Source: a virus (taxonomy: Duplodnaviria; Heunggongvirae; Uroviricota; Caudoviricetes). From it: a stretch of 43,555 nt of DNA. The position numbers and the translations under genes were made by a program. Below the pieces are notes generated by a model, which saw only the letters and a list, made by a program, of their open reading frames with translations, was not told the DNA's origin and ran no database searches. The stretch's first letter is position 1; every line of letters starts with the position of its first letter. Location of the stretch: IMG/VR virus record IMGVR_UViG_2563366965_000004; one strand, given 5' to 3'. This document shows positions 6,851-16,878 of the stretch, one piece after another.

Positions 6851-8155
6851 TTATTGACGATTAAAGTAGTTAGAGTTTAGCTCTTTAGGGAAGTAGTGTT
6901 TACGATTTACCCAAACAAATCCATCAACTTTTGATATCACAGCGACATCAACAGGCCCACCGACAGTTTCATAATCATGTGATACTTTTCTTTTGAATGC
7001 AGTGATGTTCACTAATGATTCGGCCATATACGCAAGATCTGCCTTCCCAAGTGATTGCAACATCGATATCATTTTATTTGTATGGTTATTAACAATATAG
7101 CTTTCAAGTTTAGTATCGTGATCTTGTAAAAGTACGTTTTTGAGTTCCTCAATTTCACTGGAGAAGTGATTGGCTAGTACTCCATTGTTCATTGCAGGGA
7201 AAATATTGCTAGAAACATAATGATTAAGCCGATCAAAAACTTCCTCTGTAAGAGTTCTGTTAAAATTAATGATGTTAGGGTTGCACCCATCAATGAAAGT
7301 TACTACTTCATCTTCTTGAGCAAATGGTATAACAAACCCCATATTGGTTACCTCATTATGGGATTTATCATCAATATTATGGATCATCAATTTGTTTTTA
7401 AAAATGCCGTAGATATGAAGAGTGCAAATGGAAGGGTAATATTCTTCCTCTCCATAACCTGTTATAACAATCCCTGAATATGTACGACTAGCATGGACTT
7501 TGAAAATTAAACAAGTGGAATATAATATGACTTTTTCCATAAGCTCTTGCTGTATATTTTCACAGTTATCAAGAACAATAATTGATGAAATGTATGGCGA
7601 TATTAAATCTTGTATATATGCTAAAGCATCATTAAACTCTTCTGTATCAAACCCTTCGAAAAAGAGATTATTCCTTAAGATTTCTATCTCTAAATCAAAG
7701 GCTTGCTTAACTATGTTTTGAAAAATAACATTGTCGAGTTCAACGGCGGGGTTCATTGTTAAATAGTTTACTACATTATTATCATTAATGTATCTCATCA
7801 AACCTTTGAGGTTATCAACAACAAGGTTTATAACGCAAGCCTCTCTCATTTCATTTGTTATAAGGTCTGAGTTACCATTGATGAATTTTACAAAGTCATT
7901 AACATATTCTTTAATGGTAGGGAAACTAGTTTTCCCCAATTGTTTTCTATAGGATTTAATTATAAGTTCCCACGGTGCGCCACCCAGTGTCGCATTATTA
8001 TAAATCATGATCCCCACGGGATGGTGTTTAGATAGTTCGAATAGTTTTTCCGCACTATTATTTATTTTTACTAATCTATTATGCTCTGTGGTGACTGCAG
8101 AGTCAGCAGCAAGGGCGATTCCAGTATTATTTATTACAACAATCTCAGCTGTCAT
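6851..8155 (-). CDS. Proteasome-beta/HslV-like Ntn-hydrolase fusion protein (434 aa), candidate superinfection-exclusion/defence protein
   Basis: Visibly AT-rich gene; ATG at 8155 (track start 8212 is TTG); N-terminus MTAEIVVINNTGIALAADSAVT matches the HslV/proteasome-beta start ([22 protein letters not shown]) including Thr2 and the Asp; C-terminus GGPVDVAVISKVDGF resembles the beta-subunit GGxVxVxxVxxDG(W/F) motif; about 300 unassigned residues between. Confidence 0.55.
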   Translation of the reverse strand: MTAEIVVINNTGIALAADSAVTTEHNRLVKINNSAEKLFELSKHHPVGIMIYNNATLGGAPWELIIKSYRKQLGKTSFPTIKEYVNDFVKFINGNSDLITNEMREACVINLVVDNLKGLMRYINDNNVVNYLTMNPAVELDNVIFQNIVKQAFDLEIEILRNNLFFEGFDTEEFNDALAYIQDLISPYISSIIVLDNCENIQQELMEKVILYSTCLIFKVHASRTYSGIVITGYGEEEYYPSICTLHIYGIFKNKLMIHNIDDKSHNEVTNMGFVIPFAQEDEVVTFIDGCNPNIINFNRTLTEEVFDRLNHYVSSNIFPAMNNGVLANHFSSEIEELKNVLLQDHDTKLESYIVNNHTNKMISMLQSLGKADLAYMAESLVNITAFKRKVSHDYETVGGPVDVAVISKVDGFVWVNRKHYFPKELNSNYFNRQ

Positions 8156-8297: not shown

Positions 8298-8681
8298 TCA
8301 GTCCCCCTGCGAGCGAATCCGCCCCTTCATGTACTTCTCGTACAGCTCATCTAACTCTTTCAGGCGAAGCGCAAAAATGCGGAGCATGTTCTGCTGCTCT
8401 TCTTCCGGTAACTGGCGGTAGAGCTCGAGCAAACGCTGTTCGTCCGGTTTGAGACCGTCTTTCTCTCCAACGTCTTCACCGAGTAGCCAGGCGACAGAAA
8501 TACCAACAGCGTCGGCTATGGCCAGTGCCGATTTCTTACTAATCACGCCTTTTTTGAACCAGCCGTTTACGGCCTGAGGGGTGACTCCAGCTATTCTTGC
8601 CATGTCTGCTTTGGTAACGCCGCGATCAGTGATCTCAGTAAGGCGCTCCACCAGAACGAGGTTGGGTTCTTCTTTTCTCAT
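8298..8681 (-). CDS. Prophage repressor, XRE-family HTH (no S24 peptidase domain)
   Basis: ATG at 8681; 127 aa with HTH (VTKADMARIAGVTPQAVNGWFKKG) and a short coiled C-terminus; divergent from the Cro-like gene; track ORF 8298..8951 is an upstream read-through. Confidence 0.75.
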   Translation of the reverse strand: MRKEEPNLVLVERLTEITDRGVTKADMARIAGVTPQAVNGWFKKGVISKKSALAIADAVGISVAWLLGEDVGEKDGLKPDEQRLLELYRQLPEEEQQNMLRIFALRLKELDELYEKYMKGRIRSQGD

Positions 8682-8783
8682 ATGGTCATTGTAAATATTT
8701 GGTTTATGCACGCAATAAATCCAAAGTTTGCATGAAGTATAAATCTGTGGTTTACTTCTGCTATCAATAAGCAGGAGAAGCAC
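8682..8783. promoter_or_regulatory. Divergent immunity promoter/operator region
   Basis: 102-bp AT-rich spacer between divergent repressor and cro-like starts; repeated TGGTTTA(T/C) motifs (8700-8712 and 8755-8765) are candidate operator half-sites. Confidence 0.4.
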
Positions 8784-9002
8784 ATGTCCGCACTCGATAA
8801 AGCAATTAAAGCCGCTGGCTCTGCCAGAAAGCTCAGCATCGCGCTTGGTGTGACGAGTATGTCTGTAAGTCATTGGAAGAATCGTGACCAAGGGATCGTC
8901 CCGCCAAGCTATATCTTCCCGATTTTCAAAATGACAGGCGTAACCCCCCACGAGCTGCGCCCTGATCTCTATCCAAATCCCACTGACGGATTACCAAAGT
9001 AG
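8784..9002 (+). CDS. Cro-like / YdaS-family HTH regulator
   Basis: 72-aa ORF divergent from the repressor; HTH-like SARKLSIALGVTSMSVSHWKNR. Confidence 0.65.
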   Translation: MSALDKAIKAAGSARKLSIALGVTSMSVSHWKNRDQGIVPPSYIFPIFKMTGVTPHELRPDLYPNPTDGLPK

Positions 9003-9013
9003 GAGCACTGACA

Positions 9014-9571
9014 ATGCAAACACTTTCTTTTCAACAGAATAACAGAGCGCCATCAGAGCACCTGAAATTCCAGTATCAACACAGTGAGGCTGAAGGCCAG
9101 CCGGTCGATCACCGGGCTATCTGTTCTGCCGTCCGCGCCTGGGCGGCGGCAGAGGGCCGCGTGGCGGTCGCTCTGGCGATTAAAGAGGCTGCCGAACAGG
9201 CCGAGCTTGACAGCATTGACATGACCGGCAGCGCCGATGTGTGGAACGTGAAGCTGTTTCGCTGGCTGGACAACCACGAGAAATCACCGGCCTACCGGGC
9301 GAACGTCGAGCAGCTGGCGCCGGTAATAATTTCGGTTCTGCCGCTGGCGTACCGGGATCGCGTGATTAAGCACGACTGCTTTGCGGTTCGTGTCGCCAGG
9401 TCGGTGAAAGAAGACGCTGAGGCGATACAGGCTGTCGTCCTCAAAGCCCCCAGACACGAACGGATGAAGGAAATCAGCGAGAGCATCGTAGCCAAGCTCT
9501 ACCTGGACGGACCTGATTCTGTGGCGCCCATTATGGCGATGGTTACAACGATGCTGGGTGGTGCGCTATGA
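9014..9571 (+). CDS. YdaT-like regulatory protein (CII position)
   Basis: 185 aa directly after the cro-like gene; segment KLFRWLDNHEKSPAYRANVEQLAPVI resembles my recollection of Rac YdaT. Confidence 0.45.
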   Translation: MQTLSFQQNNRAPSEHLKFQYQHSEAEGQPVDHRAICSAVRAWAAAEGRVAVALAIKEAAEQAELDSIDMTGSADVWNVKLFRWLDNHEKSPAYRANVEQLAPVIISVLPLAYRDRVIKHDCFAVRVARSVKEDAEAIQAVVLKAPRHERMKEISESIVAKLYLDGPDSVAPIMAMVTTMLGGAL

Positions 9572-13619: not shown

Positions 13620-14270
13620 ATGAGCGACAACCAGTTAGCACCTTGTTGGGAATTTCAGCCTTACCTTGCTGAAAGCAATGTTCGTCAGTTGTTAGCGGAA
13701 ATTGCTAATGTACTCGAGCAATTGTACTACCACAAACACACACTGGACAGTAACTGGTCCGAAGGTGTAAGGGCTTATGATTGGGTCAGAAATCATTTGA
13801 TTCAAAGTGAAGGGACACTGCCGGGTCTGGAAATGGTTTCGAAGGGACTGGATTATGTGGTTGCGTTAAATAAAGTGCCGCTGCAGTTCTCCAAAGATTG
13901 CATTAATAACCCGAAGAAGAAGCATCGCCTTCTTCGAAATAGGGTGGAGCATGAGCAACTTTCATTGTTCGGTGAAACTGAAGCCGAGCAAGATATTACA
14001 TGGCGGATCATCGCCGAACCATTTTTATCCGATGAAGAAGATGGCGAGCTGGAATCAACATTGCCTCGCTGGGAAGTGGCTTTAGTTGGGTTTAACGCAT
14101 ATGGTGCCCAGATCAGTATGGTTTCACACCAATCTACTGCTTCAGCGCCGCTTATGTCTCTTGATACCAACACTCTTCCGGATGAAGCTGAGATTGGCAA
14201 AGCCTCTCTTCGCCGCCGTAAAAAAGATCAAGATTTGGATGTGAGCAGTAATGGAACATCAAGTGAATGA
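13620..14270 (+). CDS. Hypothetical protein (216 aa), candidate effector/toxin partner of the ImmA-like protein
   Basis: AT-rich ORF with no motif I recognise; 3' end overlaps the next gene by 20 nt (translational coupling). Confidence 0.55.
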   Translation: MSDNQLAPCWEFQPYLAESNVRQLLAEIANVLEQLYYHKHTLDSNWSEGVRAYDWVRNHLIQSEGTLPGLEMVSKGLDYVVALNKVPLQFSKDCINNPKKKHRLLRNRVEHEQLSLFGETEAEQDITWRIIAEPFLSDEEDGELESTLPRWEVALVGFNAYGAQISMVSHQSTASAPLMSLDTNTLPDEAEIGKASLRRRKKDQDLDVSSNGTSSE

Positions 14271-15354
14271 CTTTGCTGAGTATCGTGGGGATAAGCTCAA
14301 ATTAGCCAGAATGGCTGTTGGGCTCTCCTGCGAAGAGTTAGCGGAGAAAATTGGTAAAACAAAACAATTCGTTAGCAAATTGGAAAAAGGGTTTAAACCA
14401 TCAGAACAGTTGTTAGAATTAATCTCATCTGCGCTGATGATTAAATCTGATTTCCTATTTACTGAACGAAAATATGCTTTAGAAAGCGATGTTTGCCATT
14501 TTCGGAGTAAAAAATCGAGAACCCAAACATTAACCAATAGTGTTCTGGCAAGGGCGGAGATTCTTAACATTATAATCTCTGCCGTTGAGGGAGAAATCGA
14601 GTTTCCTGATGTTTTCATACCTGAGCACCCCGGTGCTGAATTGCTGACTCCAAATGATATTGAACGTGTAGCGGAAGACTGCAGAAGAGCATGGAACTTA
14701 GGGCTGGGACCTATATCCTCAATGGTCAAACTGGCTGAGAGTTTGGGGGTTATTGTTGCTCATGTGACAGGAGTGGATGACCGCGTAGATGCTTTTACTG
14801 TTCATAACAACAGGCCAGTAATCATCCGAAATAACGTCAAAAAGAGTATATGCAGATTCCGATCAGATTTAGGTCACGAATTGGGGCACTTGGTTATGCA
14901 CGAAGGTATAACCACAGGAGATAAAGTGACTGAATCGCAAGCGGATCGTTTTTCAAGCGCGTTGCTAGTTCCTCGATTGTCCTTTATTAAAGAGTTTCCC
15001 CGTATACGAGGAAGACAGTTCGATTGGAACGCCCTAGTTGAGTTTAAGCTTCGGTGGAAGATTAGTCTTAAAATGTGCATTTACCGAGCAACAACTCTAG
15101 GCCTGCTGACGCAGGAGCAGGCAAGAACAGGTTATATGCATTTGAACTCTAAAGGATATACGAAAGTTGAACCAGGAGATGAATTTATTCGCCCGGAAGA
15201 ACCGAGTATGTTAGCTGAGGCGATTGAAATGCTGGATGATGCAACATGGATGAGCATTCTCATGAAAACTGGTTTAAGCCAGGAGTTGGTTAGGGAGTTA
15301 TTCTCGGTAAACCGCCCACTGTCAAATCCAAGAAATCTACTTCAACTGGTTTGA
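14251..15354 (+). CDS. HTH-XRE / ImmA-IrrE family zinc metallopeptidase fusion protein
   Basis: N-terminal HTH (LSCEELAEKIGKTKQFVSKLEKG) and HEXXH zinc-binding motif (HELGHLVMHE) in the COG2856/ImmA-IrrE arrangement; 367 aa. Confidence 0.8.
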   Translation: MEHQVNDFAEYRGDKLKLARMAVGLSCEELAEKIGKTKQFVSKLEKGFKPSEQLLELISSALMIKSDFLFTERKYALESDVCHFRSKKSRTQTLTNSVLARAEILNIIISAVEGEIEFPDVFIPEHPGAELLTPNDIERVAEDCRRAWNLGLGPISSMVKLAESLGVIVAHVTGVDDRVDAFTVHNNRPVIIRNNVKKSICRFRSDLGHELGHLVMHEGITTGDKVTESQADRFSSALLVPRLSFIKEFPRIRGRQFDWNALVEFKLRWKISLKMCIYRATTLGLLTQEQARTGYMHLNSKGYTKVEPGDEFIRPEEPSMLAEAIEMLDDATWMSILMKTGLSQELVRELFSVNRPLSNPRNLLQLV

Positions 15355-15368
15355 CTCAAAGCTTGTAA

Positions 15369-15396
15369 TAAACCCGCTATATGCGGGTTTTTTCTT
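15369..15396 (+). terminator. Rho-independent terminator
   Basis: AACCCGC-tatat-GCGGGTT hairpin followed by a T-run. Confidence 0.6.
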
Positions 15397-15514
15397 TCTG
15401 GTAGCGCGCTGTGGTAACGCTGTGCCTCCAGCGCTCGCTGAGGCGCTGGTGCGTGCTAATTTGCCGGAGCTTTGTCAGCAGAAACAAATAGCGGCGTAAT
15501 AAAACATTGCTAAT

Positions 15515-15545
15515 TCAACCCGCTACGGCGGGTTTTCTTTTTTTA
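15515..15545 (+). terminator. Rho-independent terminator (second of a tandem pair)
   Basis: AACCCGC-tac-GGCGGGTT hairpin followed by TTTTCTTTTTTT. Confidence 0.55.
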
Positions 15546-15606
15546 ATACTGACAGAAAATTAACAATTTGTGCTCTTAAAACGTTGATCATTTCCGTGCA
15601 TAGGTA

Positions 15607-15626
15607 TACTGTATAAAAACACAGTA
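15607..15626. promoter_or_regulatory. LexA (SOS) box
   Basis: TACTGTATAAAAACACAGTA: perfect CTGT-N8-ACAG palindrome, 19 nt upstream of the dinI-like start, overlapping the likely promoter. Confidence 0.7.
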
Positions 15627-15644
15627 CATGCAATGGAGGCTATT

Positions 15645-15878
15645 ATGAAAGTTGAATTAACCATTGATCGCATGAAAGAACTTCCTAAAGGCGCAGTACC
15701 AGCACTGGAGAAAGAACTGCTTAAGCGCCTGAATGATCACTATGACAATTGCAGGCTCACAATCCGCCGTGCCGGGTCCGATGGGTTAAGTGTTTTTGGT
15801 GGTGACAAGGACGATAAAAAGAAAATTGAATCAATCCTCCAGGATACCTGGGAAAGCGCTGACGACTGGTTTTATTAG
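15645..15878 (+). CDS. dinI: DinI-like DNA-damage-inducible protein
   Basis: 77 aa; C-terminus ILQDTWESADDWFY and N-terminal MKVELTID...LPKGAV match E. coli DinI as recalled; GGAGG RBS; track ORF starts 12 nt upstream. Confidence 0.85.
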   Translation: MKVELTIDRMKELPKGAVPALEKELLKRLNDHYDNCRLTIRRAGSDGLSVFGGDKDDKKKIESILQDTWESADDWFY

Positions 15879-15995
15879 AATTGCGCTTAAGGCTGGCGCG
15901 CATTTTTCAGAATACCGCAATTTGCGTAACCCTCTGATGCTGCTGCCGACAATCTTTAATCGCGTCTGTTAGTCGCTCGAAGGGAGAACATAAAT

Positions 15996-16244
15996 GTGAG
16001 TGATTCAGCTTTGCAAACGTCAGAAGACAACTGGTATGACATTGTAAGAAGGTCTGACGGCTGCGTGGTGTTTAGCTTTCCTTCATCGGGCAGGCATCTA
16101 ATTTATCGCGTCAATGGCATGGTTTCTATGCGGCCTTTGCTGGATGATGAAGAGGTCTTTACTCCTAATGGTTTTATGCAATTTATCCGCCGTCTCGGCT
16201 ACCGGGTAACACCACCTTCTGATAATATGAAATCGACGGTCTGA
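15996..16244 (+). CDS. Hypothetical nin-region protein (82 aa)
   Basis: GTG start with AGGGAG RBS 9 nt upstream. Confidence 0.4.
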   Translation: MSDSALQTSEDNWYDIVRRSDGCVVFSFPSSGRHLIYRVNGMVSMRPLLDDEEVFTPNGFMQFIRRLGYRVTPPSDNMKSTV

Positions 16245-16278
16245 ACAACCGTAACCTACTGCGCCACGGAGAGAAACC

Positions 16279-16878
16279 ATGGCGCACGAACTACAACTCA
16301 TTAAGCAGTCCTCAGGAATTCTGATCCCCGCTACGCCGGAGACCAGCGATATTCTGCAATCAAAAATCAAACTTGGTGCCGTATTGGTAGCCGAATTTCG
16401 TCAGGTGAGGAATCCAGCATTCCATCGCCGTTTCTTTGCGCTCCTGAATCTCGGGTTTGAATACTGGGAACCCACCGGTGGGGCGATTTCTTCCAATGAA
16501 CGTAAATTGGTGACCGGGTACGCTAAATTCCTCGCGGCATTTGGTGGAAACGAAGGCGCACTGCTGGATGCTGCCGAGCAGTATCTGGACCGTATCGCCG
16601 ATAAGCGCGCCGGTAGTATCAGCATCTGCAAATCCTATGACGCATATCGTGCATGGGTGATCATCGAGTCTGGCCACTACGACGCCATACAGCTTCCCGA
16701 CGGCACCCTTCGCAAACACCCCCGCAGCATTGCCTTTGCCAACATGGACGAAACCGAGTTCCAGCAGCTGTACAAAGCCGCGCTCGATGTTCTGTGGCGC
16801 TGGGTATTGTCCCGGGCATTCAAGGACCAGCGTGAAGCGGAAAACGCCGCATCGCAGCTCATGAGCTTTGCGGGGTGA
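16279..16878 (+). CDS. DUF1367-like nin-region protein
   Basis: 199 aa; lambdoid nin-region context; family assignment from memory only. Confidence 0.5.
   Translation: MAHELQLIKQSSGILIPATPETSDILQSKIKLGAVLVAEFRQVRNPAFHRRFFALLNLGFEYWEPTGGAISSNERKLVTGYAKFLAAFGGNEGALLDAAEQYLDRIADKRAGSISICKSYDAYRAWVIIESGHYDAIQLPDGTLRKHPRSIAFANMDETEFQQLYKAALDVLWRWVLSRAFKDQREAENAASQLMSFAG

Follow-up and report, generated by a model that had tools for sequence, protein, structure and literature searches.

In the window, the 43,555-nucleotide stretch of viral DNA analysed here (IMG/VR record IMGVR_UViG_2563366965_000004), a LexA box lies directly upstream of a prophage dinI homologue, and the locus raises the question of what this box controls: the DinI homologue itself, or another product of the genes that follow it. 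We propose, with a probability of about 85%, that the locus serves a Gifsy-type lambdoid prophage of E. coli as its SOS input module, that is, a LexA-controlled antirepressor operon. The window holds a lambdoid E. coli prophage with an integrase, recT, recE, a short HTH repressor and ydaS/ydaT-like genes, followed by the O and P replication genes, nin-region genes, Q, the lysis genes and the terminase. The 801 bp around the box and dinI are 100% identical to E. coli ET881, and this segment is present at 95% identity or more in 52 of 5426 complete E. coli genomes (~1%), being chromosomal every time.

The model for such a module comes from the Gifsy prophages of Salmonella, whose small repressors stay uncleaved during induction (Lemire, Figueroa-Bossi and Bossi 2011, PLoS Genet, PMC3121763). 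Induction of these prophages requires a LexA-controlled locus and is blocked by lexA3; the locus consists, in this order, of a terminator-like palindrome, the LexA box, dinI, a small antirepressor gene (gftA, gfoA or gfhA) that begins with a non-canonical codon, and irsA (PMC3121763). In Gifsy-2, replacement of the region 5' of dinI by PBAD made induction arabinose-dependent and insensitive to mitomycin C, and the antirepressor expressed alone was sufficient to induce the prophage; the antirepressor complexes with the repressor, and the two come off the DNA together (PMC3121763). The dinI-irsA region is also kept in prophages of Escherichia, Citrobacter, Klebsiella and Enterobacter (PMC3121763). 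A palindrome, a LexA box, dinI as the first gene, a GfoA-like reading frame with a non-canonical start and irsA are all found in the window. LexA binding, co-transcription of the genes and an interaction between antirepressor and repressor are features that we infer for this prophage from the orthologous Salmonella system.

The sites in the window with the core of a LexA box are the following.

15607-15626, + strand: LexA (SOS) box TACTGTATAAAAACACAGTA, a 20-mer with a perfect CTGT-N8-ACAG
7548-7567, within coding sequence: another CTGT-N8-ACAG site, TGCTGTATATTTTCACAGTT, matching the consensus at 15/20 positions
14796-14815, within coding sequence: another CTGT-N8-ACAG site, matching the consensus at 13/20 positions

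The LexA box was defined as a 20-bp palindrome, TACTGT-(AT)4-ACAGTA, with an invariant CTGT-N8-ACAG and an A/T-rich spacer. Both features of a gammaproteobacterial LexA box are present in TACTGTATAAAAACACAGTA. Of its 20 positions, 17 agree with the LexA consensus of E. coli, TACTGTATATATATACAGTA, and the three mismatches all fall in the A/T spacer. It is the single site in the 43.5-kb window that matches TACTGT-N8-ACAGTA with at most one mismatch (0.06 expected from shuffles), while for the looser CTGT-N8-ACAG there are three sites where 0.43 would be expected. The two sites inside genes are probably chance matches; one of them sits in DNA of 33% GC. The first-pass annotation had described a perfect CTGT-N8-ACAG box 19 nt before the gene, and both parts of this description hold, the two half-sites being perfect and the distance from the box end to the dinI ATG at 15645 measuring 18 nt. 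Its link between the element and the host DNA-damage response is likewise supported by the presence of a canonical SOS box and a DinI-family gene in a prophage.

Upstream of dinI we identified these elements.

15370-15390: second terminator-like hairpin, ending the upstream rmrA gene
15517-15534, + strand: terminator-like hairpin (AACCCGCTACGGCGGGTT) from the hairpin scan, with a T-run to 15544, directly 5' of the promoter
15584-15612, + strand: putative sigma-70 promoter, deduced from sequence and conservation
15584-15589, + strand: putative -35, TTGATC
15605-15610, + strand: candidate -10, TATACT, with a 15-nt spacer, overlapping the LexA box
15607-15612, + strand: alternative -10, TACTGT, with a 17-nt spacer, overlapping the LexA box

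The promoter was called on the conservation of TTGA and (G)GTATACTGT in the Gifsy and Citrobacter loci. In relatives anchored on the box TTGATC or TTGAAT is conserved, with TATACT after a gap of 15 nt or TACTGT after one of 17 nt, and the Enterobacter relatives carry TTGCAA-17-TATAAA ending 2 nt before the box. A consensus promoter scan (16-18 nt spacer, at least 9/12 matches) called none at the putative dinI promoter. Since the putative -10 overlaps the box with either spacing, the layout fits promoter occlusion as the presumed mode of repression. The core of the 15517-15534 hairpin is kept in the window, in mEp237 and in Gifsy-1/-2, and terminator-like palindromes stand 5' of the LexA box in all three Gifsy prophages (PMC3121763); the hairpin at 15517-15544 would insulate the operon against upstream transcription.

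Downstream of the box three genes follow each other on the same strand.

15645-15878, + strand: dinI homologue, 77 aa, first operon gene, with a GGAGG Shine-Dalgarno at 15635-15639
15879-15995, + strand: conserved non-coding leader of ~117 nt between dinI and orf82
15882-15900 (T5 to 15905): weak terminator-like hairpin and T5 in the leader (-9 kcal/mol, z=-1.1)
15996-16244, + strand: orf82, GTG start, predicted 82-aa GfoA/GfhA-type antirepressor, with a Shine-Dalgarno AGGGAGA at 15981-15987
16279-16878, + strand: irsA homologue (DUF1367, annotated NinB/Orf-like; Pfam PF07105, E=2.5e-91), third operon gene

The listed reading frame of the first gene runs from an ATG at 15633 to 15878; however, the ATG at 15645 is the likelier start because of the GGAGG that precedes it and because PGAP places the start there in the identical E. 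coli ET881 sequence. The claim that the product closely matches DinI was borne out, the 77-aa protein matching Pfam DinI PF06183 (E=8e-26, 90.6 bits against a cut-off of 24.2), PHROG 189 ('RecA filament binding protein DinI', E=1e-26) and the structure of E. coli DinI (PDB 1GHH, E=2.8e-17), and in PGAP it carries the name 'DinI family protein'. Its identity is 99% with mEp237 gp48 and 66% with the DinI proteins of Gifsy-1/-2. The C-terminal ILQ(D/E)TWESADDWF is kept, and I..ILQ.TWESADDWF is invariant when the protein is aligned with DinI of E. coli and of the Gifsy prophages. The acidic C-terminal helix of DinI is described as a DNA mimic that interacts with RecA (Voloshin et al. 2001, as cited in PMC3121763); the prophage protein probably binds RecA filaments.

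The second gene, orf82, lies past the dinI stop. The termini of GfoA were obtained by translating the primers in the primer table of Lemire 2011 (strain ATCC14028), and they read MSNSALQK... and ...RRLGYRVTPPSDI, to be compared with (M)SDSALQT... and ...RRLGYRVTPPSDN (RRLGYRVTPPSDNMKSTV) in orf82. At the DNA level the gfoA primer ends match the window at 19/21 nt (at 15999) and 36/40 nt (at 16187). A Salmonella protein cluster of 270 members (P0001), which begins MSNSALQK, is 91% identical to orf82. The relation to GftA is far more remote: pairwise BLASTP of orf82 against LT2 GftA gave nothing significant (E=1), MAFFT aligned the two at 28% identity, and hhalign of the two families placed 53 columns in register with E=5e-4 and a probability of 31%. 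This link is weak but consistent. GfoA and GfhA of strain ATCC14028 are described as no more than distant relatives of GftA (PMC3121763). Judged by the primer-derived termini, the 91% identity to the Salmonella cluster and the in-register profile match, orf82 is a GfoA/GfhA orthologue. PHROGs gives it no functional name, since the families concerned (phrog_340, E=1.4e-20, and phrog_1813 for orf82, phrog_4847 for GftA) are all of 'unknown function', and neither Pfam nor PADLOC holds a model matching orf82. An AlphaFold2 single-chain model of the orf82 family (mean pLDDT 63.8) shows four strands and a helix, and Foldseek of this model against the PDB returned nothing at E<=0.001. The product is still labelled 'hypothetical' in RefSeq and mEp237.

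The third gene completes the arrangement. An irsA/DUF1367 gene occupies the same position in Gifsy-1/-2 (STM2620, STM1020) and in mEp237, it comes after the antirepressor gene in most related loci, and the order dinI, small reading frame, DUF1367 is seen in both Gifsy-1 and Gifsy-2 of Salmonella LT2. The scan found no terminator between 16244 and 16279.

Conservation of the box was followed in a comparative set built by scanning one genome per species, which gave 24 loci encoding a GfoA-like protein (from Citrobacter, Enterobacter, Pseudocitrobacter, Siccibacter, Raoultella, Atlantibacter, Leclercia, Silvania and others). A dinI homologue stands immediately 5' of the antirepressor gene in 19 of these 24 loci, and in every one of the 19 a perfect CTGT-N8-ACAG precedes the dinI ATG by 16-20 nt, even though the box spacers vary and DinI is anywhere between 58 and 98% identical. 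Three of the five loci that have no dinI (L025, L026 and L029) carry TACTGTTTATATATACAGT(A/G) 150-170 nt 5' of the antirepressor gene; no box was found in the other two of the 24, L022 being a short contig and L030 showing a partial match only. Because both the 19 dinI-bearing loci and three dinI-less ones carry the box, its distribution indicates that it tracks the antirepressor operon, with dinI as a frequent but dispensable passenger.

An antirepressor requires a repressor to act upon, and the immunity region of the prophage offers a candidate.

8298-8681, - strand: prophage immunity repressor, 127 aa from the ATG at 8681 (PGAP: 137 aa from the GTG at 8711)
8784-9002, + strand: divergent cro-like ydaS

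HTH_3 is the only domain of this repressor, and the domain search found no Peptidase_S24 in it. The protein has 69% identity with mEp237 gp39 and 26% with the repressor of Gifsy-1 in LT2, and its C-terminus EKYMKGRIRSQGD resembles that of GfoR of ATCC14028, EKYMKGRIRTRED, as read from primer le101. Its size and domain content fit a cognate repressor of the Gifsy type (about 130-150 aa, HTH only, without the S24 self-cleavage domain), and it is the presumed target of the orf82 antirepressor. The N-terminal half differs from that of GfoR, so that the case for cognate recognition is made by the C-terminal similarity and the co-occurrence in mEp237 only; since this half binds DNA, immunity is probably different from that of Gifsy-1/-3.

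Thus, we propose that in the lysogen LexA would occupy 15607-15626, where it overlaps the -10, and silence the dinI-antirepressor-irsA operon, the upstream terminator hairpin shielding the promoter from read-through; this overlap and this shield together would allow LexA to keep the operon silent. Upon DNA damage, RecA-stimulated self-cleavage of LexA would derepress the three genes, the 82-aa antirepressor would bind the non-cleavable HTH repressor and remove it from its operators, and lytic development would start, with the DinI homologue co-induced alongside the antirepressor. In this mechanism we infer the predicted antirepressor to be the key product of the operon, and DinI is most likely an accessory to induction. 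The first-pass annotation was therefore right about the box and dinI, and it missed the operon's key product at 15996-16244, past the dinI stop.

The main competing explanation is that the box serves chiefly the prophage DinI, which by modulating RecA filaments would set the strength of the SOS response or the timing of induction. The gene is indeed kept in 19 of 24 loci with a nearly invariant RecA-interacting C-terminal helix motif, and it opens the operon and is its best-translated gene, the ATG start being preceded by a GGAGG Shine-Dalgarno. Its Gifsy homologues, each with a single box of heterology index 3.9-5.3 at 19 bp from the ATG, are strongly damage-induced, by 4.6- to 23-fold with nalidixic acid in Salmonella (PMC8072944), and Lemire et al. 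read the conservation of dinI-irsA as a hint of some regulatory function (PMC3121763). Nevertheless, non-polar deletions of dinI or irsA had no significant effect on Gifsy induction, the dinI deletions leaving induction of both Gifsy-1 and Gifsy-3 unchanged (PMC3121763). Moreover, the repressor has no RecA-dependent cleavage domain for DinI to act on, and three loci have box and antirepressor without dinI. We therefore regard this explanation as unlikely, and the earlier suggestion that DinI tunes the strength or timing of induction finds no support in the closest system studied, although a subsidiary role of DinI in induction may exist.

Two further explanations bear on the extent of LexA control. 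The hairpin after dinI could end the LexA-controlled transcript, leaving orf82 and irsA to another promoter or to an antiterminated P_R; the hairpin with T5 at 15882-15905 and a 117-nt spacer, unusual for tightly coupled operon genes, would agree with this. We find it very unlikely, because the same leader is shared with Gifsy-1/-2 LT2, where a promoter swap 5' of dinI controlled induction by way of the downstream antirepressor (PMC3121763), the scan found no promoter-like site in the leader, the dinI-less loci have their box 5' of the antirepressor gene, and several relatives have a weak hairpin or none. That the box is a fortuitous match in A/T-rich sequence with no regulatory role we consider practically negligible. 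The two CTGT-N8-ACAG matches inside genes show that the core can occur by chance; however, the box is the sole full 20-mer match in the window with both half-sites perfect (0.06 expected), it overlaps the putative -10, it keeps the same distance from dinI in 19/19 loci while spacer and flanks vary, and the orthologous boxes are functional in Salmonella (PMC3121763, PMC8072944). A LexA-controlled antirepressor operon is thus the explanation that we retain.

The leader between dinI and orf82 deserves separate consideration. An alignment of the 3' end of dinI, the leader and the start of orf82 from the window, mEp237 and Gifsy-1 LT2 (alignment A5) has a mean column identity of 93%, compared with 66% for DinI and 28% for the antirepressor, the proteins that flank the leader, against Gifsy; stretches of the leader are retained in the Enterobacter loci as well. 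Across heteroimmune Salmonella, Citrobacter and E. coli prophages this leader is far better conserved than both flanking genes. A hidden reading frame was considered and rejected, as no frame is open across the loci. An Rfam search of 15300-16400 at E<=1 returned sub-threshold chance matches only, none of them in the leader. The minimum free energy of the leader is no better than that of shuffles (z=+0.55); RNAalifold proposes 13 pairs, in which CCCU pairs with the GGGG of the orf82 Shine-Dalgarno, and no compensatory changes were found in these pairs. The 15882-15900 hairpin with its T5 could limit dinI-orf82 co-transcription; its sequence is the same in Gifsy-1/-2 LT2, whose operon is functional. 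It is conceivable, though we hold it to be rather doubtful, that the leader is a dedicated cis-regulatory RNA acting as an attenuator or on translation, in which a leaky terminator, the pairing of CCCU (~15937) with GGGA/GGGG of the orf82 ribosome-binding site and the GTG start would together set a damage threshold or delay. If so, brief SOS pulses would yield DinI but too little antirepressor for commitment to lysis.

With regard to the biology of the prophage, it is most likely induced via a LexA-controlled antirepressor and not by repressor self-cleavage. Such a route would be reversible in principle, and it would permit cross-talk with further prophages, if their repressors too are recognised by the antirepressor.

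Several known systems may be compared with this locus. The chromosomal dinI of E. coli (PDB 1GHH) has the family, the size and the acidic C-terminal helix motif in common with prophage DinI, to which its product is ~45% identical, and a LexA box near the start codon is found for chromosomal dinI as well (19 bp from the ATG in Salmonella dinI); however, no antirepressor gene follows it and it has no part in a prophage induction switch. In E. coli itself, the small Rem protein of the Qin prophage, found by iterative homology searches seeded with GfoA and FsoA, was reported to act as an antirepressor and to relieve the dicBF operon of its control by DicA (Ragunathan and Vanderpool 2023, PMC10448788). 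In the parts of that account considered here, LexA control is attributed to the Gifsy antirepressors only and no dinI partner is described for rem, and deletion of recA left spontaneous dicBp induction unchanged in Qin, which is a cryptic prophage (PMC10448788). Tum of coliphage 186, the split tum of PSP3/Fels-2 and AntC of N15 are LexA-controlled antirepressors directed against non-cleavable repressors, and Tum has a DinI-like half, so that antirepressor and DinI travel together there too (PMC3121763). In the Tum systems, however, the parts are fused or the antirepressor comes first and DinI second, whereas in the window DinI comes first and the genes are separate; the Tum and AntC phages are P2-like or N15, whereas this prophage is lambdoid.

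Much closer are the Gifsy prophages. Gifsy-2 and the Gifsy-1 of LT2 (dinI-gftA-irsA, with a GftR/GtgR repressor) have the same architecture and a DinI 66% identical to that of the window, but in this gftA type GftA is ~28% identical to orf82, a kinship detectable by profile comparison only, and the repressor is 26% identical to that of the window. Gifsy-1/-3 with dinI-gfoA(gfhA)-irsA and GfoR/GfhR have the same order of elements, with the box 18-19 nt from the dinI ATG, and in common with the window they have near-identical antirepressor termini of the GfoA type, a short HTH-only repressor with a GfoR-like C-terminus and an operon placed in the nin region, with the replication genes on one side and Q on the other. 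The spacer of the box here is the reverse complement of that of the Gifsy-1 box with one substitution. The differences are that the host here is E. coli, that the 82-aa orf82 product ends ...PPSDNMKSTV whereas tagged GfoA ends ...PPSDI, that the N-terminal half of the repressor is another one, and that a RosmerTA cassette is inserted just 5' of the operon in the window.

In phage mEp237 (NC_019704) the gp48-gp50 region is 98.4% identical over 15433-16300, with 100% identity for the orf82 product and 99% for DinI; its repressor gp39 (69% identical) has the same C-terminal half as that of the window, and it has no RosmerTA cassette but a methyltransferase gene 5' instead. The annotation of mEp237 names DinI and leaves gp49 as 'hypothetical protein', and we suggest that this 'hypothetical protein' 3' of prophage dinI (WP_016066207.1, mEp237 gp49) be reannotated as a GfoA-family antirepressor. 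Systems of this type are already known, the mechanism having been established in Salmonella and its conservation in Escherichia noted in 2011 (PMC3121763), and with a sequence nearly identical to a published phage genome the present locus adds an instance and no new principle; its practical value lies in the annotation of orf82 and in the prediction that this prophage, like the Gifsy prophages, is induced by antirepression.

The leader between dinI and the antirepressor gene (15879-15995) is conserved far above the genes on both sides of it, and in the alignment spanning this leader the mean column identity between the window and Gifsy-1 of LT2 is 93%. A weak terminator-like hairpin is located within the leader, in which a CCCU motif is a possible candidate for anti-Shine-Dalgarno pairing; no conserved ORF, Rfam match or covariation was found in this stretch. 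In Silvania and Leclercia prophages the gene for the GfoA-like antirepressor occurs without dinI upstream, and a perfect LexA box is kept 150-170 nt upstream of it, with another conserved leader after the box, TTCTTCCGGCGAACCTATTAGGAAATTTGC...:

L025, 2329-2348, perfect LexA box 5' of the GfoA-like gene
L026, 2330-2349, perfect LexA box 5' of the GfoA-like gene
L029, 2310-2329, perfect LexA box 5' of the GfoA-like gene

A GfoA-like protein with 69% identity to its enterobacterial counterpart is also encoded on a 3651-bp contig binned as a Sphingobacterium MAG (L022, JBEBQJ010000273.1), on which neither dinI nor a LexA box was found. Most likely this contig is prophage DNA of enterobacterial origin that was assigned to the wrong bin.

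Within the window, a second good LexA-box-like site, TGCTGTATATTTTCACAGTT (7548-7567; 15/20 to the consensus), lies ~600 nt inside a gene for a 434-aa protein (6851-8155, minus strand), and is probably a chance occurrence in A/T-rich DNA. The gene matches PHROG 5990 (E=8e-179), with no match in Pfam or PADLOC, and is part of an island of 33% GC that separates the recE side from the repressor, a typical place for a moron or exclusion gene.

Directly upstream of the dinI module, two overlapping genes match the RosmerTA defence/toxin-antitoxin system:

13620-14270, plus strand, RmrT gene (E=2.4e-26)
14251-15354, plus strand, RmrA gene (E=1.6e-106), encoding 367 aa with an HTH and an M78/ImmA-like peptidase

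The pair is closed by its own terminator at 15370-15390 and is absent from phage mEp237. Because a remnant of a methyltransferase gene persists at ~15401-15499 (PGAP), the sequence suggests that the cassette took the place of this gene.

The immunity region has a Rac-type layout, in which the repressor and a cro-like gene diverge from each other and a YdaT-family gene comes after the cro-like gene:

8784-9002, plus strand, YdaS-family cro-like gene, divergent from the repressor
9014-9571, plus strand, YdaT-family gene (Pfam YdaT_toxin, E=1.5e-17)

This arrangement is a link between the prophage and the RacR/DicA group of repressors, which Lemire et al. (PMC3121763) related to the Gifsy repressors.
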